A DNA stretch of 64,000 nt from a phage (GCA_025823825.1 GCA_025823825.1_4720.1); one strand, 5' to 3'; positions 32,480 to 50,717 are shown, counted from the stretch's first letter. Program-made: numbers and translations. Notes: generated by a model not told the origin, from the letters alone.

Positions 32480-32504
32480 GTTTATTTCCTTTCATTTAAC
32501 AAGG

Positions 32505-33806: not shown

Positions 33807-33819
33807 GTAACAACTCCTT

Positions 33820-34692: not shown

Positions 34693-34788
34693 ATCCACTC
34701 CGATGCGGTAAATGTCTACTAGCTCTCATAATCTATTGAAGAAACTACCGGCTTACGCCAACTTAGATTAATCAGGAGTAACCATCCC

Positions 34789-35262
34789 ATGCCAGTTTCA
34801 TCCAAACCAAGAAAAAAATCAGTAGGAAAACCGAAAGCTCAGGAAACAACAGCAATTCGTTGGGACGAGTTACGTGAACCTATCGAAAACTGCGAATTGT
34901 TATTGGGCACCCTGGGTGCGGCTATTTACCAAGCGACGCAGCCCTGTCGTTTACGATTAACCCAAAACAAACGTGATGAGTTCGTTGCGTTATCAACAAG
35001 CACGAATAAAGATCTGACCGAACTTCAAACCGAGTTGACGACGATCAAGAACTCCATTACGCCGATGTACGGTAAAGAAGTCGATGAACAAAGTATTCTG
35101 TTACAGTACAACTACGGGATGTCGTTAATGAACATCCTGGAACGCGCATCCGATATTCTGCGTCCTGACGTTGCACGCCTGAGCCAACTGCGTGTTGAAG
35201 GGATGGAGAACCAGATCCGATTCGCTAACAGTGTTAAATCTCAAGGAGCCACCGAAGCATGA
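34789..35262 (+). CDS. hypothetical protein (157 aa), basic N-terminus
   Basis: ATG with AGGAGT RBS; ATGA overlap with next gene. Confidence 0.7.
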   Translation: MPVSSKPRKKSVGKPKAQETTAIRWDELREPIENCELLLGTLGAAIYQATQPCRLRLTQNKRDEFVALSTSTNKDLTELQTELTTIKNSITPMYGKEVDEQSILLQYNYGMSLMNILERASDILRPDVARLSQLRVEGMENQIRFANSVKSQGATEA

Positions 35263-36944
35263 GCGAACAAGAAAAAGAAGTCGTGACGAATCAGGAAGCC
35301 ACCGAACGTTCAGAGTCGTCCGTTGAAACTACGATTCCGGCAAGTTCCGAGCCGGTTGGTTCCGCACAGCAGGAAAGTAAAGACGAAGTCAGCACGACTA
35401 AAGAAGATGTAGTGGCTCCAGAAGCAACCCGTGAAGAAGAACCATCACATCCACCGCTAATCGATTTCTCGAAGGCGACGATACGTTTCCAATGCGAAGA
35501 CATTCGTCCTAAGAGCCCGAAGAAAACAAAACGCCAGCCGTTGGTGTTACCGTTATATTCTCCGCGTGTACAGACAACGTATTACCGGGAATACATCAAC
35601 GAAGCAATGGATACCGTACAAGCCATTGTCGCTCAACGCGGTAAACCGACAGACGAACAGTTTGATAAATTCAGTAAAGCGGTGGTGCAATCGGTTGCTG
35701 ATGGACAATATCATCCGCGTGGTCCAGCTCACGATCGTGCGTTGGAACGTAAGGGCAGTCAGTGGACTAACGTGCCCGTAGACTCATCGGGTGTTGGTCG
35801 CGTTATTCCTGGCATCCCGCAACCGAACCATATTCCTGATGATGTCGAAGCGCCGCTGACAGGAACCGATGCGATCTATTTTGCCATCCGTAATACGAAA
35901 TCAGGTGCGCCTGCGGTAATGCCGTTATGGCATAGCGGTATTAAGCTGCAGTTTAATCCGCCGTCAAATGAACGTGTTGCAATTATGCACGAACGTATTG
36001 CTCGCGATAAAATCCTGGGTGGACGTGATAGTACCGGCTTCCTGTTTTCGGCAACCTCGATTATCACCATGAAGCACGCAATCGAATTAGCATTAGAATG
36101 CTGCTACATGGCCAACGTACCTAACCTGGATATACAGCGTTTGAAAGACATTATTCCGGTTACCGATGTTCCAGCGTTATTGTTGAACGTGTTGGTAACC
36201 ATGTATCCGTACGGATATCCTTACGTACAGACCTGCTATCAGAATCCAGAAACCTGCGACTATCGTGTCGAAGATACCGTAAGCTTTGCGAAACTCTATC
36301 AAGTTGACAACAGCGCAATAACCAAACGTATGCGACAGATCATGACCGAAGGTCCGGTCATGACAGATGAACTTTTGCGTGAGTATGCAAACGAACTGGG
36401 TGAAACAAACTCCCGTACGCTGGATCTGTCCGACAACGGTTCTGTTATCATTGAGCTTGAAGTACCGAAGATCTCACGACAAATCGCCATGGGCGAACGC
36501 TGGTTAAGCGATACCCTGGAAGATCTGCGTGATATTCTATCGCGTCCGTCAATGACCGAAGAAGAGCGTGATCGTGTTATTCGTGAACGTCAGTTCTATA
36601 GCTGGATGCGTCAGTATGATGCGTGGATCAAATCGATGCACGTGTCAGTAAACGGTACCATGCGTCGTGTAAGCGATGCGGATACAGCAACGGTATTAGC
36701 GCAGCTGTCTCGTGATAGCGATCTTCGTGAACGCTATATCGATGGGTTGATGCAATTCATCGGTGATTCGACGATTGCGCTTGCAGCAATGCCTGCCTGG
36801 AAATGTCCGAAATGTAATGCCGATATTGCTGACAATCTGCGTGACCAGAAATACTACGATCTGATTGCTTTGGATGTACCCCAGCTTTTTTTTACCCTAA
36901 ACTCCGTCCAATCTCTTCAGGAGGGGATGGACGCGGTATTCTAA
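35259..36944 (+). CDS. hypothetical protein (561 aa); U8 slippery tract 17 codons before its stop
   Basis: ATG start coupled to upstream gene; C-terminal region contains CTT TTT TTT ACC (see finding). Confidence 0.8.
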   Translation: MSEQEKEVVTNQEATERSESSVETTIPASSEPVGSAQQESKDEVSTTKEDVVAPEATREEEPSHPPLIDFSKATIRFQCEDIRPKSPKKTKRQPLVLPLYSPRVQTTYYREYINEAMDTVQAIVAQRGKPTDEQFDKFSKAVVQSVADGQYHPRGPAHDRALERKGSQWTNVPVDSSGVGRVIPGIPQPNHIPDDVEAPLTGTDAIYFAIRNTKSGAPAVMPLWHSGIKLQFNPPSNERVAIMHERIARDKILGGRDSTGFLFSATSIITMKHAIELALECCYMANVPNLDIQRLKDIIPVTDVPALLLNVLVTMYPYGYPYVQTCYQNPETCDYRVEDTVSFAKLYQVDNSAITKRMRQIMTEGPVMTDELLREYANELGETNSRTLDLSDNGSVIIELEVPKISRQIAMGERWLSDTLEDLRDILSRPSMTEEERDRVIRERQFYSWMRQYDAWIKSMHVSVNGTMRRVSDADTATVLAQLSRDSDLRERYIDGLMQFIGDSTIALAAMPAWKCPKCNADIADNLRDQKYYDLIALDVPQLFFTLNSVQSLQEGMDAVF

Positions 36945-37006
36945 TCGATCCGCGATACGGGTTACATGACGGACAACTTGTTCGTAATGATGAAAAAATC
37001 TGGGAA

Positions 37007-37366
37007 TTGCTGTTAGCGCGTAAAGGCGATGGTGGCATGAAACTGAACATCGAAATGGGTATTGCGTACGATACCATGTTTGGCTTGTACGATCGTGTTA
37101 ACGACTGGACGCCGTTGAAATGGGTTGCTCAGCACCCCGCTGAAGATCCCTGGGACAGATTAGGGATTAAGCCCTTAATCGAGGATTATGTTCGATTCGG
37201 TATTAAAGAGTTCATGACGTTGGATGCGTTTTTACAAGCACCGTATCCTTACGCGCAAACGGTACTCAAAATCGCACAAGACGAACTGCGGAAACGTAGT
37301 GCGGTACTGGACGACGATGAGGACAAGTTACGACGAGAAGAAGAACGTTTACGAAACGGAAAATAA
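37007..37366 (+). CDS. hypothetical ORF, possibly expressed only as a -1 frameshift extension of 35259-36944
   Basis: Track start is TTG with no RBS; frame is open back to 36845 with no ATG until 37037. Confidence 0.4.
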   Translation: MLLARKGDGGMKLNIEMGIAYDTMFGLYDRVNDWTPLKWVAQHPAEDPWDRLGIKPLIEDYVRFGIKEFMTLDAFLQAPYPYAQTVLKIAQDELRKRSAVLDDDEDKLRREEERLRNGK

Positions 37367-37367
37367 A

Positions 37368-37877
37368 ATGGCGAGATTTACCAGTTTGATTGGGTTGGAT
37401 ATTTGGGAAACACCGGCTGACGTTCGGGTTATTCCTGTCAACACCGTCGGTGTGATGGGACGCGGTCTTGCCAAACAGGCAGCCGATCGCGTCCCCGGTC
37501 TTCTTGAAGCGTACCGTAAGCAATGTCAAGATGGGTTTAAGGTGGGCGAAGTCGTATCGTATCAACACGGCGATAACGATCAACTCACCTACGTGTTGTT
37601 TCCATCAAAATCGGATTGGCGTGAAAGAACACGACGCGAGTATATCGTTAACGGATTACTGGCGTTAAAAGCGTGGTTATTGGAGCTTCAGTTCGAAAGA
37701 GACGGCTTCTCATACCAGCGTCCGGCTGAACCGCTGATTGTCGCAATTCCTCCGGTTGGTTCTGGTTGCGGTAATATCGGTTATGGACAATCTGAAACAA
37801 TCCAGCCTCAATGGGTACGCGCACAAATCAAACAGTATCTTGCCACCGTACCGAACGTTCATTTCTACTTGTTCTAA
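37368..37877 (+). CDS. putative macro-domain (ADP-ribose binding/hydrolase-like) protein (169 aa)
   Basis: ATG 1 nt after upstream TAA; N-terminal VRVIPVNTVGVMGRGLAKQAADR resembles the macro-domain Gly-rich ADP-ribose-binding loop. Confidence 0.5.
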   Translation: MARFTSLIGLDIWETPADVRVIPVNTVGVMGRGLAKQAADRVPGLLEAYRKQCQDGFKVGEVVSYQHGDNDQLTYVLFPSKSDWRERTRREYIVNGLLALKAWLLELQFERDGFSYQRPAEPLIVAIPPVGSGCGNIGYGQSETIQPQWVRAQIKQYLATVPNVHFYLF

Positions 37878-37893
37878 CGCAAAGGTAACATAA

Positions 37894-37925
37894 CCCTCCT
37901 CCTTCCCTCACGGGTTGGAGGAGGG
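37894..37925. repeat. GC-rich extragenic hairpin element, inverted orientation (CCCTCCTCC-TTCCCTCACGGGTT-GGAGGAGGG)
   Basis: Loop is the reverse complement of AACCCGTGAGGGAA; between convergent macro-domain gene and 37943-38317. Confidence 0.6.
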
Positions 37926-37942
37926 CTTATGCTGTTATGCTA

Positions 37943-38317
37943 TTAATGTTCGTTCCAGATGGCATCTTCCGGTGGAACAATAGGATCTTTCTTCGGCATT
38001 GATGGCACTTCATGACGATGCTTACGGAACTGCCTATCAATAACCTCACGAAGCCGGTACGCGTCAACCCAGGTTGATTTATTGAACAGCTCCAACGTCA
38101 CAGTTAATCGTGTTCTTGACATTGAATAGCTTTTCTTCGCAATCAAATTGGGATAATTCAGTTGAGCGAACCACGCACGTATTTGTGCTTCGGTAAAAGC
38201 GATGCTGTAATAACTAAGTTTACCGTCATTAAAATCGTGCGCGTGGGTGTAACGTCCAGCGTAACGCCAGACAAGATGCACATTCAGATCGATCCATGGT
38301 GGGGTGGTATCAGCCAT
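37943..38317 (-). CDS. hypothetical protein (124 aa)
   Basis: ATG with GAGGG RBS. Confidence 0.65.
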   Translation of the reverse strand: MADTTPPWIDLNVHLVWRYAGRYTHAHDFNDGKLSYYSIAFTEAQIRAWFAQLNYPNLIAKKSYSMSRTRLTVTLELFNKSTWVDAYRLREVIDRQFRKHRHEVPSMPKKDPIVPPEDAIWNEH

Positions 38318-38326
38318 GTGTTACCC

Positions 38327-38896
38327 TCAACGATTCTTCATCACTTTACCCAGGCTTTCGATATTATCCCAAAAGCGATTTTTACTTGGCGCATCGCCGA
38401 CGATAACCGACATCAAATCGCGACGTTCACGACTGATGATGCCCTGTGATTTCCAGATCACCATCGTCCAGCAAGCAGCCAGAACGAACAGATGATTAAT
38501 ACTCGGTTTGGTTTGCGCGATGAACGCGAGCCATGCCCAGATACCGGTATATACTATCGTCACTAAAAAGAGCGAGATTGTTGCAACGACAACAACGAAG
38601 TTTTGGACAGCGGGTTGATTCGCGTTATCATGAATAGCGGTAAGATCAGGAAGGTTACCTTCAACTGAACTCGTTTCATCGATTTCCAATTCTTCGATTT
38701 CTTTTCGTGTGTCGGGAGCTAATCCGGCATCATCAAGATGCTTTTTTAACCGCTGTATACTTAATCGTTGACCGATAGGAATGTTGATGTTGTCGTAACT
38801 ATTAAGCGCATCAACCAGGGAGCGCCCGTCAACGAGAACCAAGCTCGCAGTACCCATTGTCTGCGGTTTTATTTTGTAAAGGTCTTTTACTTTCAT
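38327..38896 (-). CDS. hypothetical membrane protein (189 aa), two predicted transmembrane helices
   Basis: ATG with GGAGGTGG RBS; hydrophobic stretches FVVVVATISLFLVTIVYTGIWAWLAFIA and LFVLAACWTMVIW. Confidence 0.65.
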   Translation of the reverse strand: MKVKDLYKIKPQTMGTASLVLVDGRSLVDALNSYDNINIPIGQRLSIQRLKKHLDDAGLAPDTRKEIEELEIDETSSVEGNLPDLTAIHDNANQPAVQNFVVVVATISLFLVTIVYTGIWAWLAFIAQTKPSINHLFVLAACWTMVIWKSQGIISRERRDLMSVIVGDAPSKNRFWDNIESLGKVMKNR

Positions 38897-38917
38897 GTAG
38901 ACACCACCTCCAACGTG

Positions 38918-41530
38918 TTAAGCGTCTGGTGTAAAATCAAAAGGAATGTCCGTACGAATGATATCATAACGTTTTCCTAGGAAATAAAACTCTTCGGGAA
39001 CCTGGCCGGGAATAATGCTATCGCCGATGAACTGCGGATACGCCCAGATGTACTGAGTGAGTCCTTCGAACTTATCCAGGTTATTTGCGTGGTTACCCAT
39101 GATACGTTTCCAGAGTTCGCGTTTATACGGTGTTTTAACATCGAATCCATAAAGCGGTGCAAGATCTTCACCAGGAACAAATCCCAGGTAATAATGGATC
39201 TGACTAACCGGGAAACCAAGCGTATCTCGCGGAATGGTGATCGCTTGCTCAGCCTTGGTGACATGCGTTTCAATAATCCAGTCGTAGCACTCCGAATAGA
39301 ACCGATCGAATTTCTCTGGGTTATACCACGCTTTGGGAAGATTCAGTTTCTCCGTGAACGCGTTCGACATGATCGTCGGCAAGAACGGAAGAACGCCGGT
39401 TTTGATCTGCGTGTATTTCGATTTTACCCGGTTAACCAAATTCCAGCAACTGTATCCTAATTGGTCGTTACAAAACTCAACGTAGAGATCGTAGTCACCA
39501 CCGGATAACGGGTTGTTAATATCACCGATGTCTGCGGCGTATTTGTTGGGATATCGGTTATTGAAAGCCAGTTTGGTTTGGTAATCGTAGATACACGGTT
39601 TGTTGTTCGCTGTATTGATCCACCACCAGGGTTCACCTATTTGCACACAAATGTCCTGGACATGGGGGTAGATGATATCAGCAAACGCGGTTAACACGTC
39701 CCCTAACCACGCCATCGCCTGTTGGTTACATGGAGACAGCAACCAGGACGGTGGTGTATATCCGGTTGCGGCGATGTTTCCTTCCCAATCCTGCTGCGCC
39801 CACTCGAACGGGCATGCTGTACTCATCAATTCGTAACTTAAACTGATGGTGACAGAGAAATGGTGTTTTGCAGCATATGCGGCGAAAGCTTCATGCCACG
39901 CGATACAGGGTGGATTTAATACATCCGTGGTGTTCACCAGTAACTTACCCGCACTTGGCGTCCAGACAGTATCGTAGAAATGCGACATTCCAACATAATG
40001 CACTAATTCATCTTGATACCCCGCATAAACCAGGTTTTCAAATACGCGCTCCGGCGTGATGTTGTAATGGTCATCGTAAGCGGTTATCGCACGAAGTTCG
40101 TGTGGTGTACAATGATGGCGATTAACCGTCATTTCTTGATACACCCCATCGATAGGAAGAATCTCGAGGGTTAAACCGAGGTCGATTGGCGTTTCCAGAT
40201 AGGTCGTTTCAGTCGCATCTTCCTTATAATGTCGAGAACTCATGCTGAACATCAACGACGTTACCGATTCGAGTTCGATAGGCTCGTCAGCATAGAACCC
40301 CGCCATTGCGTCATTGAAATCGATCGTTACGATTGCGCTTCTACCGTCTTCAGAGACATCGGTGGCGTATCGGGTTAATGAGATATACTGACGGCTATCG
40401 TCTTTGTGTACGATGGTTAGAACCGGCGGGTTTTCGGTATCTGCAAAGTTACGCTGATCGCCAGTAAACGTGATCTTCGCTTTAAAGATCAAACCGAATA
40501 ACGACGTCATGGGATCATACGCAATACAACCGTGATCCAGCGTATCCGTTGTCCGCCATTCTATCCCGACCAACCCGTTAGCGGTATGGCATCGCATATA
40601 CGCATTAAGGACCATGTCTTCACTGACAACCGCGAAGTTCTCTGTTGACTGACCGTTGATAATCCAATACATCGGTTGCCAGAGGTTACGCGTACCTTTT
40701 GCGTAGCGGTAGGTTGGTGCGCCTTTAGGGTTGCCATTATTGAGATGGAATACGGCAGTACCTTGATAATGGTCGTTCGTATTAATCGGAACACTGTAAG
40801 CATCACCGAGATCCGTACGTTCGACCTTCGTGACTGTTGCGTTTTCAAATAACCCACGTAGCGCCGGTAAACCGATATCTTCAGGCGCGTTTTCTCGACG
40901 AATCGCATCCGCGATGCGGTGGGCTAAGGCAGGGTAAATGACCTCACCCTGCTGTAGGTTTGCAAGACCTACAAAGCGATCGGGGTCGATGCTAGCAATC
41001 AATAACTCGACATCACCCTTCGTTCTATCGTCGTTAAGATATTTCAGTCCGGTAAGGTCAAGATGCTGAATAAGCGACAACAGGTTGTATTTACGGTTTT
41101 CAACAGTTAGTACAAGATCGCCTGCCCAAACCAAACTTCCCTCATCCGCTGTTACTTTAACGGATTGTCGGCCTGTGGTAGACGTTGTTGTCGTTTTATT
41201 TAATTGTCCTTGTAGGAAGTCGGTTGCGAGGTCAAAGGCAATGCCGTAACGGTCAGCGACCGCTTGCATGATTTCACGTAACTGGGTATCTTCTTCAATG
41301 ATAATCTTGACAGGTATTCCCAAGAACGCTTTAGCGAGGTCTCGTTTAACCAACGAGACGAATACGGATTTGTAGTATCGACTTCCATCTTTCCCTTTAA
41401 AAAGAATGGAGGTTGTTTCGGGTGCCGATAGAACACGTGCAAATTCAACATCGTCGAAAGTAAGAGAAAGTCCGTTTTTCTCGTTGGTTAATCTTAGTAT
41501 TTCATTTTGCGCGGTTTCATGTAACTTCAT
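38918..41530 (-). CDS. putative receptor-binding protein/tailspike (870 aa) with shared N-terminal anchor domain
   Basis: N-terminal 110 aa (RDLAKAFLGIPVKII...ADRYGIAFDL) conserved with N-termini of 47425-47952 and 48108-49862 genes; divergent C-terminal region. Confidence 0.7.
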   Translation of the reverse strand: MKLHETAQNEILRLTNEKNGLSLTFDDVEFARVLSAPETTSILFKGKDGSRYYKSVFVSLVKRDLAKAFLGIPVKIIIEEDTQLREIMQAVADRYGIAFDLATDFLQGQLNKTTTTSTTGRQSVKVTADEGSLVWAGDLVLTVENRKYNLLSLIQHLDLTGLKYLNDDRTKGDVELLIASIDPDRFVGLANLQQGEVIYPALAHRIADAIRRENAPEDIGLPALRGLFENATVTKVERTDLGDAYSVPINTNDHYQGTAVFHLNNGNPKGAPTYRYAKGTRNLWQPMYWIINGQSTENFAVVSEDMVLNAYMRCHTANGLVGIEWRTTDTLDHGCIAYDPMTSLFGLIFKAKITFTGDQRNFADTENPPVLTIVHKDDSRQYISLTRYATDVSEDGRSAIVTIDFNDAMAGFYADEPIELESVTSLMFSMSSRHYKEDATETTYLETPIDLGLTLEILPIDGVYQEMTVNRHHCTPHELRAITAYDDHYNITPERVFENLVYAGYQDELVHYVGMSHFYDTVWTPSAGKLLVNTTDVLNPPCIAWHEAFAAYAAKHHFSVTISLSYELMSTACPFEWAQQDWEGNIAATGYTPPSWLLSPCNQQAMAWLGDVLTAFADIIYPHVQDICVQIGEPWWWINTANNKPCIYDYQTKLAFNNRYPNKYAADIGDINNPLSGGDYDLYVEFCNDQLGYSCWNLVNRVKSKYTQIKTGVLPFLPTIMSNAFTEKLNLPKAWYNPEKFDRFYSECYDWIIETHVTKAEQAITIPRDTLGFPVSQIHYYLGFVPGEDLAPLYGFDVKTPYKRELWKRIMGNHANNLDKFEGLTQYIWAYPQFIGDSIIPGQVPEEFYFLGKRYDIIRTDIPFDFTPDA

Positions 41531-41552
41531 TAAAAACCTCAGCCCTTTAGAA

Positions 41553-42194
41553 TTAGATGTACTGCTTACCGCCCACGAAGGAAGTTAACCAGTTCCCGCT
41601 GACGAGTTGTGATACCCAACCTGGAACGGCTCTACCATTCTGGCTCATGATGTTACCACACCAACCAGGGAATCCGGGACGGATGTAATAGAAAGTTAAA
41701 TTGTAGAGATGGCAATTCCATACCGCAACGTTATGTTTACCAGAAACCGCTTTAAAGATAAACGCGACAGGTAACGGAGACGATAACAATTCGGTCACAG
41801 GGACGGCTGACCAGTTCGCATTCGCGTTCCATGGTTGCCAGGTATGGCTACGCGAGTCACCGTTAACGTTACCGTTGCTACCGCGTCCGCCCGCGTTCCA
41901 CCAAAGCGATGGACTCATGTTCTTAAGTGAGGTAAATTGCTGTGGTGGAATATTCGGAATGATAACAGGGTTGGTACCTTGTCCGTGTTTCTTTTCTTTT
42001 GCGTTCACATAGCCGTTTATCGATTCCAGGTATTTGGTACCAGGATAATTGTTCTGGACTTGTGTCGCAATATCACGAACATCGAACGTCCAGCAGATCA
42101 TGGTGTTGTAGTAAGCATCGGTGTTGTCGTACCATGCGTTACCATCTTGTAAACGTGCGCCACTATTCGGTGTTTTATCTGTGTTTATAGCCAT
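41553..42194 (-). CDS. hypothetical protein (213 aa), paralog of 42306-43022
   Basis: C-terminal IRPGFPGWCGNIMSQNGRAVPGWVSQLVSGNWLTSFVGGKQY nearly identical to neighbour. Confidence 0.7.
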   Translation of the reverse strand: MAINTDKTPNSGARLQDGNAWYDNTDAYYNTMICWTFDVRDIATQVQNNYPGTKYLESINGYVNAKEKKHGQGTNPVIIPNIPPQQFTSLKNMSPSLWWNAGGRGSNGNVNGDSRSHTWQPWNANANWSAVPVTELLSSPLPVAFIFKAVSGKHNVAVWNCHLYNLTFYYIRPGFPGWCGNIMSQNGRAVPGWVSQLVSGNWLTSFVGGKQYI

Positions 42195-42305
42195 AGTGTT
42201 GTCCTATACTGCGATGATTGAGATATCGGATGCCGGATGTGTGTTGCCATCAGGTGGTACGTACAGAAACACCCACAGATAAAACAGTAGCTTCTCTAAC
42301 TTCAA

Positions 42306-43022
42306 TTAAATTGAAGTTAGATATTGTTTACCTCCAACAAACGACGTTAACCAATTACCTGAAACAAGTTGCGATGCCCAGCCAGGCACTGCCCTACCGT
42401 TCTGGCTCATCACGTTACCTGCCCATCCCGGAAAACCCGGTCGGAAAATATATACTTGAATATGTGTTAAAGCGTTATCATTACCACTGCCAACAGCAAC
42501 GTTACGACTCCCAGATGACGGGAAATATTCTTTTAAGAACAGAGGATCGGTTGCTAATAAAGATGCGGGCCAAGGGTTCGCGGATGCATCAACATCGAAT
42601 TCGGTCCATCGCCATTTACGTCCCGTGTCGAACCATGTCGATGTACCACCACCCCTCACGGCAAGATTGCGCGCATCACGGACATTATAAATTGATTCGA
42701 TGTTACGCCATCCACCTTTTGCAGCGTTTGCTGCATAGCAAACCGCATTACCACCATTCTTCTTCTCGTAAACGGTTCGTTTGATATGAACACGGTCGAT
42801 GAACGCTTCACCGTATTTGTTGACGAGCGTTTGTGCGATATCACGAAGATCGTGCATGTGAAAAGCGATGTCTTCGTTATGGAACCATGTTGTCTGGTTC
42901 CAGACGGTACCGTTTGGTTCGGCACACATCGATCGGATATTGTTGCGTTGATTAATCGCGATAAAACCCATTGTATACCTCGTTCCTATTCTCAAAAAGG
43001 AAATTTCATACGATGACGCCAT
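42306..43022 (-). CDS. hypothetical protein (238 aa from internal ATG), paralog of 41553-42194
   Basis: Internal ATG (MASSYEISF); the upstream residues of the track ORF are a translated hairpin element whose arm GGAGGAGC serves as SD. Confidence 0.7.
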   Translation of the reverse strand: MASSYEISFLRIGTRYTMGFIAINQRNNIRSMCAEPNGTVWNQTTWFHNEDIAFHMHDLRDIAQTLVNKYGEAFIDRVHIKRTVYEKKNGGNAVCYAANAAKGGWRNIESIYNVRDARNLAVRGGGTSTWFDTGRKWRWTEFDVDASANPWPASLLATDPLFLKEYFPSSGSRNVAVGSGNDNALTHIQVYIFRPGFPGWAGNVMSQNGRAVPGWASQLVSGNWLTSFVGGKQYLTSI

Positions 43023-43026
43023 AGCA

Positions 43027-43056
43027 GCTCCTCCTTCCCTTACGGGTTGGAGGAGC
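43027..43056. repeat. GC-rich hairpin element whose arm provides the SD of 42306-43022
   Basis: Minus-strand reading GCTCCTCC-AACCCGTAAGGGAA-GGAGGAGC-TGCT-ATG. Confidence 0.6.
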
Positions 43057-43064
43057 ATACTTAA

Positions 43065-43571
43065 TTACTCGCTGATAACCTCAACGGAATTGGGATCAGC
43101 GATCATCGCACGGTCAGTAGAACAATTGAAGAAGACCATGCCGACACCATCGCCGTTCGAGTTCAGGGTTGAACTTACGTAAGACAGGGTTGGTTTATTC
43201 ATGCGGTAGAAGCGTTCGCTGGTAGCGGTATTGAACCCCAGATCAACGTAGTCTTTCACCGTGGTATACAACTGTGTGGATTCGAAAACGGTTACCGGAG
43301 AGTCGACGGTAAACTGACTACCTTCATCCACAACCAGAACTTTATCGTTCCAGATTTCAGTGGTTGAAAACTTCGGTTTCCAATGTTCGAATTCCTGGGT
43401 TGCTCCCCAGCAGGAATACACAGCGAGATTGCTGTTCTTCTCAACCGGTTTCAATCCCACCAGTTGTGTCAGGTCTTTATCCAGGTTCGGTAAGCCTTCC
43501 AGCGTAGCGCACCCACCCAGAGAAAGTACCATCAACATACCAAGAATAATCGCGCAGAGTTTCTTCATCAT
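43065..43571 (-). CDS. putative lipoprotein (168 aa)
   Basis: Signal peptide MMKKLCAIILGMLMVLSLGGC with lipobox-like LGGC. Confidence 0.7.
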   Translation of the reverse strand: MMKKLCAIILGMLMVLSLGGCATLEGLPNLDKDLTQLVGLKPVEKNSNLAVYSCWGATQEFEHWKPKFSTTEIWNDKVLVVDEGSQFTVDSPVTVFESTQLYTTVKDYVDLGFNTATSERFYRMNKPTLSYVSSTLNSNGDGVGMVFFNCSTDRAMIADPNSVEVISE

Positions 43572-43619
43572 TAGATTTCCTTATGTGTTAACGGAAGTGA
43601 CTTCCATAAGGATTGATGA

Positions 43620-44072
43620 TTACTTTTTGAGCGCTTTAAGTTCTTCTTCCAACGCTTCCACTTTTGCCGTAAGCTTCTGTACTTGTTTGATTAATGGAAC
43701 CACCAAACGTTCGTACATAACACCTTCAGCGACGAGTCCGTTAGAAGAAACGATAGCGGGGTCATCTTCTTCGGTTGCATCACGCCAGTGCACGTACTGC
43801 GGTGCGATCTCACCAACCTCTTCAGCAATCAACCCATACCAACCCCAATCCTTGTTGTCTGCTTCACATGTGGAACGATACCAAACAGGACGCATCTCCA
43901 ATACTTTATCCGCTTGTTCATCCGTGATATTCTCGATATCTTTCTTATAGCGACGCGACGACGTTGAACGAAACACATTGTTGATCCCAGAAACAGGACT
44001 GATATACATGTTAGCCCCGCTGGTTGTAGTGCTAATGTCCCATACCGCAAATCCGCCGTTACTCCCATTTTT
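43620..44072 (-). CDS. S74-type intramolecular chaperone-like domain, open frame out of phase (+1) with upstream tail fiber gene; probable frameshift-fused fiber C-terminus or homopolymer artefact
   Basis: SSRRYKKDIENI...WYGLIAEEV...PQYV...YERLVVPLIKQVQKL...LEEELKALKK matches the auto-processing chaperone pattern; frame open from 44072, first ATG only at 44009; A7 run at junction. Confidence 0.55.
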   Translation of the reverse strand, partial: KNGSNGGFAVWDISTTTSGANMYISPVSGINNVFRSTSSRRYKKDIENITDEQADKVLEMRPVWYRSTCEADNKDWGWYGLIAEEVGEIAPQYVHWRDATEEDDPAIVSSNGLVAEGVMYERLVVPLIKQVQKLTAKVEALEEELKALKK

Positions 44073-47000
44073 TTACGATCAATGTGTTGGCAATAATGTC
44101 CAGGTTATTGTCGTAACCGGTTAATTGTCTTTCCGTTACATAACTGGATAGATTGACCGAGTAGTTCTTACTGTTATAACAACGACGCCATCCTGGGCTG
44201 TTGGTACTGCCATTATAGTTGTCGTAGCTATAAATGAACTCGGAGTTGGTTTTCGCACCACTGACGGAAGACGTGGTTGCGGTCGTAACACGGATGGTAT
44301 AGTTTGTCATCCCGAAGCTAACGACCTCGATAACAGCACCAGCCAGAGGGATAATACCGCACTTGGTTTCACTGTCTGGGATGTATGCGCTGTCGGCAGC
44401 TGCGAAGGAGCAACGTGCGACCCAGGCGCGGGTATTGAATGCACCTTGGTTTTGCAACAACGTGATAAACGATGAGGTCGTAATCGAGCTGTTATTATCA
44501 CCGGTGATCAACCAGCCGGTCGGGCATGCGGTTGCGCCAACGTTTTTCGCTGTTAACGTGATGTTCTGCGATCCGTCGAAGGCTACGCCACTGATAGTGC
44601 GCGCAGTCTGCAGTTTCGTCGCCGTTGCTGCGTTCCCTGATGTGTTCTGGTTCCCTGCGGCGTTAACACCCGGCAGATTGATATTCGCACTACCGTCGAA
44701 AGACACCCCACCAATGGTGCGGGCGGTTTTCAGTTTTGTCGCCGTGGCGGCATTACCGGTCGTGTCTTGGTTACCGGTGGTGTTTACCCCAGGTAGGTTG
44801 ATATTGGCCGTTCCGTTAAATGAAACACCACCAATCGTCCGTGCCGTTTGCAACTTCGTTGCGGATGCCGCATTCCCCGTGGTGTTTTGGTTACCTGTTG
44901 TATTCACACCTGGGATACTATCCTTAGATGTGTAGATCTGTGCCCATTCCGACCAGTTCGCATCTGATGCATCACGACGCGAACGTAGGTAAGCTGGAGC
45001 GTGTGCGCCTGAAGTACCTGACCATCCAATAAGGATCTCACCTTCACCTACTGCGGTTGCTCCTTTAAGATGAACAACGTTACCGTAGGCTGTAGGGTAT
45101 CCGTTATTGTACGCTTCATACATCTGGATGCCCGTATTGCTGCCCTGGGTCGCATTAGCTAAAGCGGTGACTCGTCCCATGGAAGCGAGCACGTTAATGC
45201 TAAAGCTAATATCAGTTGTACCATCAAAGGCGACCCCATTAATCTTCCGTGCTGTTTGGAGTTTCGTGGCAGTAGCCGCATTACCAGAGGTACTCTGATT
45301 ACCTGCTTTGTTCACGCCTGGTAAATCAATGTTGGCGGTTCCATCAAAGGACACACCCCCTATGGTTCTCGCCGTCTGAAGTTTTGTTGCTGAACCGGCG
45401 TTTCCGGAAGTGCTTTGATTACCCGCCGCGTTAACACCCGGTAGGTTAATGCTAGCAGAACCATCAAAAGAAACACCACCGATTGTGACAGCCGTTTTCA
45501 ATTTCGTGGCTGTCGCAGCGTTACCCGTTGTATTCTGATTGCCAGCTGCATTGACGCCAGGTAATGCGATATCAGCTGTGCCATCGAACGCGACACCGCC
45601 TATTTTACGGGCGGTTTGTAGCTTGGTTGCTGTAGCGGCATTACCGCTGGTATTTTGCGTACCGGCTTTATTTACACCGGGAAGATCGATGTTAGCAGAA
45701 CCGTCGAAGCTGACGCCACCTATTGTTCTTGCGGTAGCGAGTTTAGTTGCTGTGGTTGCAGCATTACCAGCCTTTAACCATTCGCCCCATGGGCCATCCA
45801 CGCCGTTCCATGAAGCTGTTAAACTACGTACGTAAATATTTCCTGTACGTACGGTGTAACGCTGTGTTCCACCGAATTGCCCAGCTGGGAGCACTTCGAT
45901 GTAACCTACTGCGTTTGCTTCAGGGAAATTGTGGGCAGCATCAGCATTCGTTGACGTTTGTTTGGACCAAATACCCACAGACGCTTCAACCGGACCGTAG
46001 GTATTTAGATTCGCATCGGTGGGAAGCTGTCCTCGGAAACGTCGGAATAATGAAGCTGTTAACCCCAACGTTGTTTGCATCCCTTCAATGCTTGACTGCG
46101 ATAAAAGCGCCCGAGCTGTCGACGTGATAGCCGCTAAAGCAACCTTATCCGTACCGGTAAAATACGGGAATTTGTTTGCTGAAGTTGCTAAACCTGAAAG
46201 GGCGGTCAGTAATGCGTTAAGGGGTTGTTTCCCAGCCAGCGCGTTAGTTACTGTTGTTGCGAAATTAGGGTCGTTGCCTAAAGCTTGAGCCAGCTCATTA
46301 AGCGTATTTAGCGCTTCTGGCGACGAGTCGATCAGTGATGCGATAGCACGCATCACAAATTCCGTGTTGGCGATCTGTTGACTGCTATCGTTATCTGCAG
46401 CCGTAGGTGCTGCTGGGATACCGGTGAACACAGGGTTATTAAGATCTGCCTTGAGAGCGATGAGACGTCTAAGCGCTTCGACATCGACTTTCAGGTTTTC
46501 CCATCCGACGAGATAACCATCACCGGTTGTATGATAACGGTTGTACCAAAAATCACCATTGACACCGAAATAGAATATTCCTTTCTCTTCGTATTGTGGG
46601 CCGGAACTGTTCCGTGATGAGCTAATGTATTTTATTTCGATAAGGCCGTCGAATACCACTCCTGGGATGATTTTATTATTTCCAGCTGGCTGTGATACTT
46701 GGTACATCCCCGGGGTTGCGGCTTTAACCCACGTTAAGAATTCTGTTACTCCGGCGCTACCACTGAAATTCTTAACGTCGGTAAGTATCGCCCCATAACC
46801 GAACATACCGGGTAGAGCAACTCGTCCGCTGGTACGGTCACGAATATTTGATGCGACGACAGGCAGCTGTTTACGAACATTGTTAACCGCCTTAGGTGTG
46901 GCCGATTTTGTCTCGTCATCGCTATCGATGGCGTTGCTCAGGATGGTCAGTCCTCGAGTATTTGTGGTCGCATCAGGAAGAAACGCGTTATCCAACACCT

Positions 47001-47418
47001 TAAGTTGTACAGCGCTCGTGTTACTAACAACGAGATACATCTGACAGTTAAGAACGCTGGATGCACCTTCAGTAGGCACCGGCTTATATCTTTCCGGTGC
47101 GCTGCAAACAGCGATCAGAACACCCTGATCGTCATACAGACCGATTTCACGTACCCAGAATCCACCTTGGTTTACAGGAATAATACCCTCAACAATAATC
47201 CTGGTTGTGTCATCCGTATCGACACGGATATTAGCAACTTCCCCACGATAAACTTCGTGTACGAGCGCTGTTTGACCAACAGCCGGTGTCGGTATCGACC
47301 CGTTACCATCGCCAACAGCAAAATGTGTGATTTTTAGTTTCTCGCCACCAGGAAGTAGTGCGGCGGCGATACGTTCAGCGCCTTTATCGGTAATGACCGT
47401 TTTATATGTTGTACTCAT
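44059..47418 (-). CDS. tail fiber protein (1119 aa) with P2 gpH-like N-terminal domain and tandem 33-aa fiber repeats
   Basis: N-terminus TVITDKGAERIAAAL...ITHFAVGDGNG...GQTALVHEVYRG...GGFWVREIGLYDDQGVLIAV resembles the P2 gpH / lambda Stf fiber N-terminus (from memory); 8-9 repeats of TARTIGGVSFDGSANIxLPGVNxAGNQxTSGNAATATKLQ. Confidence 0.85.
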   Translation of the reverse strand: MSTTYKTVITDKGAERIAAALLPGGEKLKITHFAVGDGNGSIPTPAVGQTALVHEVYRGEVANIRVDTDDTTRIIVEGIIPVNQGGFWVREIGLYDDQGVLIAVCSAPERYKPVPTEGASSVLNCQMYLVVSNTSAVQLKVLDNAFLPDATTNTRGLTILSNAIDSDDETKSATPKAVNNVRKQLPVVASNIRDRTSGRVALPGMFGYGAILTDVKNFSGSAGVTEFLTWVKAATPGMYQVSQPAGNNKIIPGVVFDGLIEIKYISSSRNSSGPQYEEKGIFYFGVNGDFWYNRYHTTGDGYLVGWENLKVDVEALRRLIALKADLNNPVFTGIPAAPTAADNDSSQQIANTEFVMRAIASLIDSSPEALNTLNELAQALGNDPNFATTVTNALAGKQPLNALLTALSGLATSANKFPYFTGTDKVALAAITSTARALLSQSSIEGMQTTLGLTASLFRRFRGQLPTDANLNTYGPVEASVGIWSKQTSTNADAAHNFPEANAVGYIEVLPAGQFGGTQRYTVRTGNIYVRSLTASWNGVDGPWGEWLKAGNAATTATKLATARTIGGVSFDGSANIDLPGVNKAGTQNTSGNAATATKLQTARKIGGVAFDGTADIALPGVNAAGNQNTTGNAATATKLKTAVTIGGVSFDGSASINLPGVNAAGNQSTSGNAGSATKLQTARTIGGVSFDGTANIDLPGVNKAGNQSTSGNAATATKLQTARKINGVAFDGTTDISFSINVLASMGRVTALANATQGSNTGIQMYEAYNNGYPTAYGNVVHLKGATAVGEGEILIGWSGTSGAHAPAYLRSRRDASDANWSEWAQIYTSKDSIPGVNTTGNQNTTGNAASATKLQTARTIGGVSFNGTANINLPGVNTTGNQDTTGNAATATKLKTARTIGGVSFDGSANINLPGVNAAGNQNTSGNAATATKLQTARTISGVAFDGSQNITLTAKNVGATACPTGWLITGDNNSSITTSSFITLLQNQGAFNTRAWVARCSFAAADSAYIPDSETKCGIIPLAGAVIEVVSFGMTNYTIRVTTATTSSVSGAKTNSEFIYSYDNYNGSTNSPGWRRCYNSKNYSVNLSSYVTERQLTGYDNNLDIIANTLIVKKWE
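44540..45760 (-). repeat. in-frame tandem repeats of about 99 bp (33 aa) inside the tail fiber gene, two blocks
   Basis: Repeated peptide unit read in translation; coordinates back-calculated from protein positions, approximate. Confidence 0.7.
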
Positions 47419-47424
47419 GGCGTT

Positions 47425-47952
47425 TTATCCCGGGTAAATAGTGATGGTGTCACCAACGATAGTTGTAGCACCGGCGTAAAGATACGCTGGTGATGCCTCA
47501 CGTTGGTTTGTCACGATAAGATCCAGTCTCCCACGCCAAACCACGGAGGTATTCGCGATGGGAATCGAGATCTTCTTGGAAGTATCGTCACGAAAATTAA
47601 TGGCGGTAGCAAGGGTAACTGAATCAAAATCAACGTCGGGTTCAAAGTTGAATCCGTATTGATCTGAAATAGCTTGAATAACCGCTCTTATGGTTGTTGT
47701 TTCAACCGACTCCAAAACGATTTTTATCGGTATTCCTAGAAATGCTTTCGCGATATCACGTCGTGTGTAAGTGATAAAACTTTCACCACACCACCTTGTT
47801 CCTTCATTTGCTGTGACGATCACTTTTGCCCTGTTAGCACCAGAACTCCCATCCAGGGTTAAAGTGAGATCGGAGTTGCTGAATACACTACCGTTACGTT
47901 GGTTTATCAACGTAATAAGTTCGTCTTTCCATGGTGGGTAAAGTGAACGCAT
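47425..47952 (-). CDS. short protein (175 aa) made mostly of the shared RBP N-terminal anchor domain
   Basis: Internal ATG (MRSLYPPWKDELITLINQRNG) preceded by GGAGGAGGG; aligns with N-termini of 38918 and 48108 genes (RRDIAKAFLGIPIKIV...DQYGFNFE). Confidence 0.65.
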   Translation of the reverse strand: MRSLYPPWKDELITLINQRNGSVFSNSDLTLTLDGSSGANRAKVIVTANEGTRWCGESFITYTRRDIAKAFLGIPIKIVLESVETTTIRAVIQAISDQYGFNFEPDVDFDSVTLATAINFRDDTSKKISIPIANTSVVWRGRLDLIVTNQREASPAYLYAGATTIVGDTITIYPG

Positions 47953-47975
47953 ATGCGCACCCTCCTCCAATAATC

Positions 47976-48020
47976 AAATTAAAATGCAAAACGCCTCGAA
48001 ACCAGGGTGCGATTCGAGGC
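47976..48020 (-). terminator. putative intrinsic terminator (hairpin GCCTCGAA-N12-TTCGAGGC followed by U-rich tract on minus strand)
   Basis: 8-bp stem, then GUUUUGCAUUUUAAUUUG on the minus-strand transcript, downstream of 48108-49862. Confidence 0.4.
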
Positions 48021-48107
48021 AAACGTAAACAGTCTTAACGACCGCATAAAATTCCGCGCATATTACCCCCCCCCCTCGACGAAGCGAGGTAGAGGAGGAT
48101 AACACGA

Positions 48108-49862
48108 TTATGCTGCTACATACCCAGGCCAACGTTCTCTTGGCCAGTTTGTTGCGCCCTGTCCAACGTTGTCCTTACCAGAAGTTACATTACTTACATC
48201 CCAACCACTAAGATCCTGGTTAAATGCGGTGTTGTTACGCATCATGAGGTCGATATTACGTAATGATTGGGTATTCCAGCCGGAAATGTCTTGGTTGAAT
48301 GCCGTGTTGTAAGCAAACATGTTAACAACGTTTTGTAATTTTGAAGTGTTCCAGCCGCTAATATCGCCATTGAACTGCATGTTCGAGAACATACTGCTAG
48401 CATCGATAAGACTATCTGTTTTCCAGTTAACCAGCTTGTTCTCATCAAGTGCGTTGCAACTACTGAACATGTAACTCATGTTGTTAACTTTGGATACATC
48501 CCATTTATCTAACCCGTTACCAACGAACTCGTAACAAGCTTGGAACATCCAGCTCATGTCGGTAACCTGGCACACATTCCATTTGCTAAAGTCGAGGTTG
48601 AGTTTTGCGCATCCGGAGAAAGTTTTATACATACTGGTGATACGACTAACATCCCATTCTTGAATGTTAGGATCATTAAGTATAGATAAGAATTGGAACA
48701 ATCCGTCTAACGACGTCCATTTCTCTGGAATACGGTTTGGTACTGTACGGAGCGATGAAAGGTTATTGGTTGACGGAGAGCGGAACATACCGTTATCCCA
48801 ATTTACGATTTCCGTAATGTTGTACCCACGGATCGTTTGGCGTCCATTACCATTATACACAGACCCTGTTGCAGTTATTGTATATTCGTTTGTATCAGCA
48901 TACGTATATTCAGCCTGTGTAGGCCACTCACCTATTACATCCCTATTCCCATCACCCCAGTCAATGGAAATATCTATCCAACCATCAAGATCTAGGGTAA
49001 CGGTCCCGCCATTGGTCTTCAGGATGTATTTACCTGCATTGTCGGTATAATAACAAACAATCATCGCACCGTACAGGTTACCAATTTGCCAATCATCCTT
49101 TTGAGTTACCGCGATTTGTGCTGTACCACGCTGTAAGAAAAGTACCGTACGGTTCTCGTCAGTCTGTAGTGCGGTTAGTGCTTGAGTCTTATCATCGTCG
49201 GTAATTTCACCGGCTTCCATTAAAGCACTTAACATTCTTTCGAAGTACTCGATAGGCAACTGAGGTCCTACCGACATATCAACTGATGGAACAGTGAGAT
49301 CATCCAATGCTGCTGCCGTTGCGAGGACTAATGATCCCTTGGCGGTGTCTGTTTCTTGGAGGTAACGCAGTCCCGTAATCTGGTACGCTTGAATGATTGT
49401 AATCAGATCCAGTGTATCGTTAATGACCTGTACTTGTAAATGTCCAGACCAAACATAGCTGCTTTCAGCAATCGGTAATTCGACCGACTGAATACCCGAC
49501 GTTTCAAAACTGATCTTCTTATTAAGATCGGCTTCCAGGAAATCAACAGCTAGGTCGAAATTTATACCGTACTTCTCAGCGATGGAATCTACAATGTTCC
49601 TGAAAGCAACATCGGTACTTACGATGAAACGTAACGGGATCCCGGTGAACGCGTTGGCAATATCTCGACGAACATACGTGAGCGACTGCTCGAAGAAATA
49701 AGGACTGTTATCTCCAGGTTTGATGGTTACCTGGCATACTTCAGGATGTTCAGCTGGAATGAAAGATTCGAATTTAACGTCGGTTTCCTTCAACGATAGC
49801 ATGTTCTTCCGGTTTACCAACGCCAGAAGATCAGCTTTCCACCCAGGATAAACTGTAGACAT
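48108..49862 (-). CDS. putative receptor-binding protein (585 aa): shared N-terminal anchor domain plus C-terminal DUF285/BspA-type repeats
   Basis: Internal ATG (MSTVYPGWKADLLALVNRKN) with GGAG RBS; C-terminal repeats ...MFxxxxxFNQDISGWNTxxxxNxxxMF... typical of the Mycoplasma DUF285 / BspA-like family. Confidence 0.7.
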   Translation of the reverse strand: MSTVYPGWKADLLALVNRKNMLSLKETDVKFESFIPAEHPEVCQVTIKPGDNSPYFFEQSLTYVRRDIANAFTGIPLRFIVSTDVAFRNIVDSIAEKYGINFDLAVDFLEADLNKKISFETSGIQSVELPIAESSYVWSGHLQVQVINDTLDLITIIQAYQITGLRYLQETDTAKGSLVLATAAALDDLTVPSVDMSVGPQLPIEYFERMLSALMEAGEITDDDKTQALTALQTDENRTVLFLQRGTAQIAVTQKDDWQIGNLYGAMIVCYYTDNAGKYILKTNGGTVTLDLDGWIDISIDWGDGNRDVIGEWPTQAEYTYADTNEYTITATGSVYNGNGRQTIRGYNITEIVNWDNGMFRSPSTNNLSSLRTVPNRIPEKWTSLDGLFQFLSILNDPNIQEWDVSRITSMYKTFSGCAKLNLDFSKWNVCQVTDMSWMFQACYEFVGNGLDKWDVSKVNNMSYMFSSCNALDENKLVNWKTDSLIDASSMFSNMQFNGDISGWNTSKLQNVVNMFAYNTAFNQDISGWNTQSLRNIDLMMRNNTAFNQDLSGWDVSNVTSGKDNVGQGATNWPRERWPGYVAA

Positions 49863-50063
49863 AAGCACTCCAATCATGGGGGCGAACGCCCCCCATCAGT
49901 TAAATGATCGTTTACGTCGCGTAAGGGTAATATAATTGCTGTGAGCCATATCAGAAGTTCACAACATTCTGAATCATAAGGTTACGTCGTTGGAAACAAA
50001 CCGATACAGATTCTTCATAGAACATTGAGATGATGGAAACCTAATTCGTACCATGAAAGCCGC

Positions 50064-50118
50064 AATAAAAAAAAGAAAAATAGGAAAACGGTGTTCATCC
50101 TTTTAGGGATGAACACCG
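50064..50118 (-). terminator. rho-independent terminator downstream of 50139-50717
   Basis: Perfect 12-bp stem CGGTGTTCATCC/GGATGAACACCG with 6-nt loop, followed on the minus strand by a long U-rich tract. Confidence 0.75.
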
Positions 50119-50138
50119 CGTACCGTTATGTTGAATGC

Positions 50139-50717
50139 TTAGTAAGGAATCAGATCGTTAAGCTTCTCTTCTTCGATAACAAAGAAGTTGTTCTGGTCGT
50201 CTAAATCTGTTAACAAGACTTGCCCGACAGTAAAGCATGTACCACCTTTCTTAGGTGTCCATACCGGCTCGTTCGTTACCTTATCAGGATACCATTTGAA
50301 ACGATTGGTATCCAAGAAGAACGCCGCTTTGTTCTCTTTATCGGTTGAACGATAACTAACCAATGCGGGCCACTCAATCCAGGTATTCGTACACGGTACA
50401 TGTAAAGGGTACCACGCACGCCAACATTTACCTGGTCTGTTAGGATCTATCCAATATTTAGCAAACAATACAGCATCTTTATACTGTTTCTGCATCAGCA
50501 TTTCGAGGACAAGTTCGTTAATTGGTAAACCCGCCTTTTCTTTCGTCACACTAGGAAAACCGACGTACACGTTATTCTTCGACACGGATGATGTAACAAC
50601 ACCGGTAACTAACGGTCTGCTCGGTTTACGTTTCTGTTCTTTCCGACGTGTGTAAAAGAATAGTCCGACAGATACAGCAACAAGTATAATAAACAACACT
50701 ACCTTAATCCAGCTCAT
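50139..50717 (-). CDS. hypothetical membrane-anchored protein (192 aa)
   Basis: ATG in ATGA overlap with upstream gene; N-terminal signal-anchor WIKVVLFIILVAVSVGLFFY followed by basic stretch. Confidence 0.7.
   Translation of the reverse strand: MSWIKVVLFIILVAVSVGLFFYTRRKEQKRKPSRPLVTGVVTSSVSKNNVYVGFPSVTKEKAGLPINELVLEMLMQKQYKDAVLFAKYWIDPNRPGKCWRAWYPLHVPCTNTWIEWPALVSYRSTDKENKAAFFLDTNRFKWYPDKVTNEPVWTPKKGGTCFTVGQVLLTDLDDQNNFFVIEEEKLNDLIPY

Follow-up and report, generated by a model that had tools for sequence, protein, structure and literature searches.

Little is understood about how nucleus-forming jumbo phages recognize their hosts, and the resistance of their shielded genomes to many bacterial defences makes them of interest for therapy. 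In Escherichia phage vB_EcoM_Goslar (family Chimalliviridae; 237 kb), one of these phages, a recent preprint finds that DUF7941 defines "a Chimalliviridae-specific family", with members gp22, 23, 31, 33, 34, 86, 91, 92, 93, and 161 (10.64898/2026.04.21.720040). AlphaFold 3 predicts head-to-tail oligomers of these proteins, in which the linker and C-terminal subdomain of one protomer pack on the N-terminal domain of the next; gp22 filaments were seen by negative stain, a gp126–gp127 heterodimer was fitted into unexplained density of the phiKZ baseplate, and a baseplate-anchored "fiber cloud" is proposed to recognize the host through C-terminal domains (10.64898/2026.04.21.720040). Here, we describe a 64,000-nucleotide stretch of phage DNA (GCA_025823825.1_4720.1, the window) in which three open reading frames (ORFs) between positions 38918 and 49862 probably (about 0.8) encode chimallivirus-specific DUF7941 proteins, each with an N-terminal assembly module and, in the longer ones, C-terminal working ends directed at the host surface. 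Virion presence, copy numbers, and baseplate position are taken from the papers, where they concern orthologs; homology, fold, domain content, conservation, and locus variation come from the present analysis.

An earlier, sequence-only reading of the window had proposed that these three ORFs encode interchangeable tailspikes that share one N-terminal anchor, and all three are present on the minus strand:

38918 to 41530, minus strand: 870-residue DUF7941 protein; ORF with an ATG start, Pfam domains, ortholog of Goslar gp86
47425 to 47952, minus strand: 175-residue DUF7941 protein, N-terminal domain only; Pfam DUF7941 at 61.5 bits, ortholog of Goslar gp91
48108 to 49862, minus strand: 584-residue DUF7941 protein with BspA/DUF285 leucine-rich repeats (LRRs); Pfam DUF7941 and DUF285, paralog of Goslar gp161

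The third had been counted as 585 residues; its locus holds, with a length of 584 residues plus the stop codon. Both shorter proteins start at an internal ATG, within mechanical ORFs that begin at a TTG at 47970 (175 residues) and at 49877 (584 residues), and these start codons, as first chosen, are supported since homologs elsewhere are 175 and 584 residues long.

Pairwise BLASTP of the full proteins aligns their N termini with expectation (E) values of 6e-36 for the 870- and 584-residue proteins (36% identity over 235 residues), 6e-22 for the 870- and 175-residue proteins, and 3e-25 for the 584- and 175-residue proteins, so the proposed N-terminal likeness is significant. The domain common to all three spans ≈150 residues, not the ≈110 first given; the likeness of the 870- and 584-residue proteins continues to about residue 240, and past the common part nothing is alike among the three. 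The YPxWK start that had been assigned to all three is found in the 175- and 584-residue proteins and is absent from the 870-residue protein, while RRD[IL]A.AF.GIP and YG..F[DE] occur in every one of them, and 12 N-terminal positions are invariant when Goslar-like relatives join the alignment. All three score above the 27-bit gathering score of Pfam DUF7941 (PF25613), at 147.8, 61.5, and 76.9 bits for the 870-, 175-, and 584-residue proteins, respectively, and their PHROG relatives carry the annotation "virion structural protein". A profile search and jackhmmer over all six-frame ORFs of the window returned exactly three carriers and no fourth. The claim of a true common assembly module followed by unrelated C-terminal domains is supported.

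A sequence search of the PDB with the anchor profile gave no match; a fold search alone gave one. We modelled the 175- and 584-residue proteins with AlphaFold2, and the membership of the 870-residue protein in this fold rests on its 36% identity to the 584-residue protein. The 175-residue model (mean predicted local distance difference test score, pLDDT, of 76.7) is folded over residues 1 to 150 and disordered over residues 153 to 175 (pLDDT <50), and the 584-residue model (pLDDT of 84.8) has a disordered linker at residues 151 to 173 (pLDDT <50). For both models, the only PDB match to the N-terminal domain with E ≤0.001 in Foldseek is chain 0 of 9xqd, which is PHIKZ127 (phiKZ gp127), assigned by sequence; the match has E = 1e-6, a probability of 1.0, and template modelling (TM) scores of 0.51/0.57 for the 175-residue model and E = 3e-4 with a TM score of 0.59 for the 584-residue model. 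The matched domain of the latter lies as follows:

49413 to 49862, minus strand: DUF7941 N-terminal domain of the 584-residue protein, residues 1 to 150; Foldseek match to phiKZ gp127

phiKZ gp127 and gp126 also belong to the DUF7941 family (E = 1.2e-27 and 4.4e-9, respectively) and have the N-terminal fold of the window proteins (Foldseek probability of 1.0). As here, a longer member and a short member made up of the N-terminal domain only are encoded alongside each other. The two differ from the window proteins in sequence, with an identity of only 15 to 23%, and, unlike the 870- and 584-residue proteins, have no C-terminal binding or enzyme domains. Our own DUF7941-domain profile does not find gp126 or gp127; the Pfam model alone finds them. 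The phiKZ atlas places gp127 in the outer peripheral baseplate, with one copy in each star-lobe complex, where a band of five gp139 dimers ends (Nat Commun 2026, PMC13250141). A phmmer search of the window ORFs with phiKZ gp26, 27, 28, 128, 130, 139, 157, and others gave no match bar gp126, which weakly matches the 870-residue protein (E = 7e-4); the phiKZ baseplate partners are either too diverged in the window or encoded elsewhere.

An exhaustive profile search yielded 277 cluster representatives of the DUF7941 family, with the domain almost always starting at residue 1 and total lengths from ≈140 to 1537 residues. Among ten long members scanned, DUF285 is found in five and LRR_5 in one, and the C terminus has no assignment in four. 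In Salmonella phage pSal-SNUABM-04 (L016, 4451 to 15581), at least six tandem paralogs match our own DUF7941 profile, and large arrays of DUF7941 paralogs thus exist in other jumbo phage genera. The pSal-SNUABM-04 array holds ≈13 genes annotated "putative virion structural protein" and lies behind an exopolysaccharide (EPS) depolymerase gene.

The 870-residue protein carries three Pfam domains, DUF7941 at residues 2 to 277 (matched over positions 2 to 275 of the 276-position model), NCTSP_N (PF23844, 42.5 bits) at 285 to 450, and TIM-barrel_NCTSP (PF23845, 287.3 bits) at 476 to 837, which map to the window as follows:

40700 to 41530, minus strand: full DUF7941 module of the 870-residue protein, residues 1 to 277 (N-terminal domain, linker, and C-terminal subdomain); Pfam
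39020 to 40678, minus strand: N4 gp65/gp64-like N-domain and TIM barrel of the 870-residue protein; PDB 9lc0 and tblastn
39977 to 39991, minus strand: GMSHF motif, residues 514 to 518 of the 870-residue protein, aligned to the GMSHY position

The non-contractile sheath of phage N4 is built from gp64 and gp65, the latter serving as receptor-binding protein. The 870-residue protein matches these solved sheath subunits (PDB 9lc0) with E = 2e-30 for gp64 and E = 5e-7 for gp65, and its residues ≈285 to 840, a module of ≈560 residues, are homologous over their whole length to N4 gp65/gp64 and to the gp142-type proteins of rV5 and phi92, including the GMSHY segment. By tblastn, 259 phage records cover at least 80% of this module, with identities of 36 to 42% in the listed rV5-like (Vequintavirus) and phi92-like (Justusliebigvirus) records. 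The names given to these homologs there are tail fibre, non-contractile tail sheath, and baseplate protein with EPS depolymerase activity. What differs is the mounting: in N4, rV5, and phi92, the module sits on sheath or myovirus N termini, a different and shorter N terminus of ≈130 residues in the rV5/phi92-type homologs replacing the 284 residues that hold DUF7941 here, and domains D3 to D10 of N4 gp65 are absent from the 870-residue protein. The Goslar tail is contractile and the rV5 and phi92 homologs likewise belong to myoviruses; the sheath role is the N4 case only. Within its own lineage, the 870-residue protein is conserved end to end: each segment is 98 to 99% identical to its counterpart in Goslar gp86, and across the orthologs the TIM barrel ranks with the most conserved parts.

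A preprint ties the same gp65/myovirus segment, with its invariant GMSHY, to the use of the NGR glycan (10.64898/2026.04.02.716166). GMSHY stands at the aligned position in N4 gp65, phage alia, and rV5_ev147; the 870-residue protein does not contain this pentapeptide and reads GMSHF instead, a conservative Tyr-to-Phe change that is invariant in the window protein and eight orthologs, Goslar gp86 included. NGR binding by the 870-residue protein is a lead that the strong homology suggests and not a result.

The second long protein ends in a different fold:

48111 to 48797, minus strand: LRR solenoid (DUF285/PARCEL repeats) of the 584-residue protein, residues ≈356 to 584

The repeats are recognized as PARCEL in NCBIfam and as DUF285 in Pfam, and the fold is that of an LRR solenoid. 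Proteins with BspA-type LRRs usually belong to the surface of cells, and a literature search gave no paper in which DUF285 is a phage receptor-binding protein. The 584-residue protein shares 45.5% identity with Goslar gp161 over 75% of its length, and coverage of at least 80% of the protein is reached by no deposited phage record. Among relatives, it varies most in the linker/helical part and the beta-sandwich. In PDB fold searches, the 175- and 584-residue models matched phiKZ gp127 and LRR proteins only. Structure prediction and domain content give a TIM barrel and an LRR solenoid, with no beta-helix or depolymerase fold, and the name tailspike accordingly does not fit. The idea of several receptor specificities carried by different heads is essentially right, the C-terminal domains being of host-recognition type.

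The 175-residue protein had been described as essentially the anchor domain alone, either an adaptor or a truncated spike. Its model, an N-terminal domain with a disordered tail, agrees with an anchor domain alone; conservation of its length, 175 to 176 residues across more than 30 clusters with identities as low as 61%, rules out a truncation. It is 88% identical to Goslar gp91, and Goslar gp23 and phiKZ gp126 are likewise stand-alone members made up of the N-terminal domain only.

Goslar, a close relative, is the sole megablast match of the window, which belongs to the same genus-level lineage and is 92 to 97% identical to it (97% across 32001 to 42246, by blastn). The Goslar DUF7941 family has the architecture seen here, an N-terminal domain, a disordered linker, an optional C-terminal subdomain, and carbohydrate-binding module, glycoside hydrolase, or LRR domains. 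Three differences set the window apart from Goslar, one of them a cassette:

48121 to 50024, no strand assigned: cassette without a DNA match to Goslar, in place of gp92 and gp93; blastn map

The 584-residue gene lies inside this cassette and stands where Goslar has gp93 (276 residues) and gp92 (1198 residues), neither of which is present in the window. From the 192-residue gene onward, four gene orders are found among the window, related loci L005 to L014 and L019, and Goslar, given here in residues: 584-175-fibre in the window and L005 to L010; 273-1198-584-175-fibre in L011, L014, and L019; 215-255-584-175-fibre in L012 and L013; and 276-1198-175-fibre, with no 584, in Goslar. The genes for 273/276 and 1198 residues are always present or absent together, and a second DUF7941–DUF285 paralog (480 to 484 residues, Goslar gp161) is encoded elsewhere in Goslar-like genomes. 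The heads are not interchangeable in the sense first proposed, as no C-terminal swapping on a constant anchor is seen within the Goslar lineage and the 870-residue protein is conserved throughout. The modularity takes the form of whole-gene presence or absence, together with reuse of the 560-residue module on other N termini in unrelated phage families.

These data are consistent with the following scheme, which draws on the Goslar preprint. The DUF7941 N-terminal module would attach the proteins to the peripheral baseplate, to each other, or both, the linker of one protein (with the C-terminal subdomain, if present) docking on the N-terminal domain of another, so that chains of DUF7941 proteins may form, linked head-to-tail to one another and to the baseplate rim. 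The 870-residue protein would then display a carbohydrate-directed N-domain and TIM barrel, the 584-residue protein would display, behind a beta-sandwich, a binding solenoid of BspA-type LRRs, each with a putative ligand, and the 175-residue unit, the counterpart of phiKZ gp126 and Goslar gp23, would accept a partner's linker and bear no head. Together with the P1/P2-type long fibre of the same transcription unit, the phage may thereby present several host-surface binding activities. In CsCl-purified Goslar virions, gp86, gp91, and gp161 were detected by mass spectrometry, and Table S4 of the preprint gives estimated copies per virion of ≈4.5 for gp86, ≈4.6 for gp85, ≈4.9 for gp92, ≈4.8 for gp93, ≈1.2 for gp91, ≈43 for the fibre gp90, ≈19 for gp87 (213 residues), ≈737 for gp88, ≈111 for gp161, and ≈577 for gp22 (10.64898/2026.04.21.720040).

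Several observations weigh against this interpretation. The Goslar baseplate map showed no density for DUF7941 proteins, and ≈5 copies per virion of gp86, gp92, and gp93 and ≈1 of gp91 suit a few fixed sites over long filaments (10.64898/2026.04.21.720040). For phiKZ gp127, an AlphaFold prediction was docked into a map of 4.4 Å (PMC13250141). As regards the ligand, the motif of the 870-residue protein reads GMSHF and not GMSHY, and in a second preprint a genetic screen identified the Goslar receptor in E. coli K-12 as GluII of the lipopolysaccharide (LPS) outer core, with no dependence on NGR (nfrA/nfrB/wecB) listed. The screen thus points to the LPS outer core and not to the NGR glycan, which argues against an essential NGR requirement; therefore, the ligand of the 870-residue protein is either dispensable in that assay or different.

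The copy numbers lend themselves to another arrangement, in which each N-terminal domain docks directly on the same type of baseplate site, six per virion, and the paralogs are independent spikes that occupy these sites alternatively or in parallel. In phiKZ, each star lobe indeed carries one gp127 N-terminal domain where the gp139 band ends, and Goslar gp86, gp92, gp93, and gp85 at ≈4.5 to 4.9 copies come close to six; since ≈5 copies of gp86, gp92, and gp93 fit one per baseplate sextant, the fixed-socket picture stays alive for these members. It has to contend with the AlphaFold 3 head-to-tail contacts, the gp126–gp127 heterodimer that fits unexplained phiKZ density, the gp22 filaments, and the ten paralogs of Goslar, and a chain is needed because other paralogs are abundant, at about 100 to 2000 copies (gp161 at ≈111, gp22 at ≈577), beyond what six sockets hold. 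We regard direct docking of every member as a possibility that is clearly the weaker one. The claim of docking on a common baseplate site therefore holds in part: the sole structural match is to a baseplate protein, phiKZ gp127, and the published model is one of head-to-tail association.

Gene order raises the question of whether the 175-residue protein is instead an adaptor that mounts the horizontally acquired P1/P2-type fibre, with the 273- to 276-residue DUF7941 protein mounting its 1198-residue neighbour likewise. A gap of 6 to 8 nucleotides separates the end of the 175-residue gene from the fibre gene in 11 of 11 related loci as well as in Goslar and the window, and the 273/276- and 1198-residue genes co-occur, their Goslar products being equal in copies (≈4.8 and ≈4.9). 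Stoichiometry speaks otherwise for the first pair, with ≈1.2 copies of Goslar gp91 against ≈43 of the fibre gp90; the phiKZ counterpart gp126 has no neighbouring fibre gene, and gp92 has a DUF7941 module of its own according to the preprint, which counts it as a member on structural grounds (10.64898/2026.04.21.720040). Our own hhalign comparison could not confirm the latter assignment, the gp92 N terminus being collinear with the DUF7941 profile at a non-significant probability of 1.6%. A fibre adaptor is unlikely on this evidence. Far less probable still is that the proteins are non-structural enzymes or factors that modify the host surface, with the shared N terminus as a localisation or regulatory domain that never enters the virion, even though some records label the TIM-barrel module EPS depolymerase or poly-GlcNAc deacetylase and BspA-type LRR proteins are mostly cellular surface proteins. 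Detection of gp86, gp91, and gp161 in CsCl-purified Goslar virions, the phiKZ gp127 model in the baseplate, the position of the genes in a late structural cluster beside the tail fibre, and the virion structural annotation of the PHROG relatives have largely refuted it.

The interpretation as DUF7941 assembly modules with host-surface heads is in its general principle already published for Goslar and phiKZ, and the gain from this locus is incremental. New in the window are one paralog (584 residues) and an arrangement at the variable locus, and the present analysis explicitly connects gp86-type proteins with the N4/rV5/phi92 module. The locus records how Goslar-like phages naturally vary in their set of DUF7941 heads, with one head tied to N4 gp65 and the NGR-linked module of rV5 and phi92, all well studied, and it offers testable candidates for host-range determinants and engineering. 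A wider synthesis is tentative and rather less likely than not: DUF7941 might be a universal socket on which chimalliviruses capture receptor-binding modules from unrelated phages, the 870-residue protein being an NGR-like/poly-N-acetylhexosamine glycan binder or deacetylase from an N4/rV5/phi92 pool and the 584-residue LRR protein a second, lineage-specific adhesin, with the four locus arrangements setting host range and the short DUF7941 proteins pairing specifically with the product of a neighbouring gene as phiKZ gp127 does with gp126.

The genes and sites around the three ORFs include the following:

38327 to 38896, minus strand: 189-residue ORF 3' of the 870-residue gene, ortholog of Goslar gp85; ORF
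43620 to 44009, minus strand: Peptidase_S74 intramolecular-chaperone domain, 129-residue ORF in another frame than the fibre; Pfam PF13884
44059 to 47418, minus strand: long tail fibre of 1119 residues, P2/P1-type collar N-domain and repeats; Pfam Phage_tail_fib and Phage_fiber_2
50088 to 50119, minus strand: terminator-like hairpin with a 13-bp stem and T-rich tail, between the 192- and 584-residue genes

The 189-residue protein has no Pfam, PHROG, or NCBIfam match; the copy numbers of Goslar gp85 (≈4.6) and gp86 (≈4.5) suggest that it may be a 1:1 partner of the 870-residue protein. In the window, the fibre gene begins 6 nucleotides past the 175-residue gene; the two follow each other directly, in this order, in Goslar and in each of the 11 related loci retrieved around the 175-residue gene, with a gap of 6 to 8 nucleotides across the window, Goslar, and these loci. 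The distal fibre end and its chaperone differ from Goslar, being of the S74 type in the window and Caudo_TAP in Goslar. The fibre ORF stops just after an A7 run at 44068 to 44074 (minus strand); six relatives (L005 to L010) have A6 at the same site and a single ORF of 967 to 1265 residues that reads into the Peptidase_S74 domain, and the A7 run is either a homopolymer error of sequencing or assembly or a real frameshift. The hairpin is the strongest such site in 37800 to 50400 and probably marks a transcription boundary, the start of the transcription unit of this module and the edge of the variable cassette.

Between the 870-residue and fibre genes, two minus-strand ORFs of 213 (41553 to 42194) and 250 (42306 to 43058) residues encode paralogs (E = 5e-35) that are near-identical over their last ≈50 residues (…RPGFPGW.GN.MSQNGRAVPGW.SQLVSGNWLTSFVGGKQY), with no Pfam, PHROG, NCBIfam, or PDB match for either. 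Relative to Goslar, 42247 to 42967 is an insertion that carries the second copy of the 213-residue-type gene, that of 250 residues; relatives carry one or two copies of the 213/250 type, and L012 and L013 have a further copy after the shortened 215-residue DUF7941 gene. A perfect palindrome with a 12-bp stem, TCTAACTTCAAT TAA ATTGAAGTTAGA, at 42295 to 42321 overlaps the stop codon of the 250-residue gene near the edge of this insertion (42247). Just past the fibre gene, a 168-residue ORF (43065 to 43571, minus strand) has a lipoprotein-type signal, MMKKLCAIILGMLMVLSLGGC; its ortholog, Goslar gp88, is among the most abundant unmodelled virion-associated proteins, which is odd for a lipoprotein; this protein may belong to the virion or have entered the preparation with contaminating membrane.

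Finally, the locus can be compared with two other sets of receptor-binding proteins that share an N-terminal docking domain. On the chimallivirus peripheral baseplate itself, phiKZ gp131, gp133, gp134, and gp135 are paralogs that share an N-terminal docking domain and differ in their C termini, and the N termini build a hetero-hexameric fibre base (PMC13250141). The concept is shared; the proteins are not homologous to DUF7941 proteins, as hhalign gives a probability of 0.15%, with no DUF7941 match and no shared PHROG, and we rejected them as relatives. The sequence-only reading had looked to branched systems of the CBA120 and phi92 type, a comparison that does not carry over, there being no Pfam or PHROG matches to a T4 gp10-like adaptor or a trimeric beta-helix. 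CBA120, G7C, and phi92 do resemble the present locus in that several receptor-binding proteins per virion are joined via N-terminal adaptor domains. Their anchors have no sequence or fold similarity to the DUF7941 domain, and they are organized as a branched hierarchy of T4 gp10-like domains, in contrast to the head-to-tail association of identical modules proposed for DUF7941 proteins.

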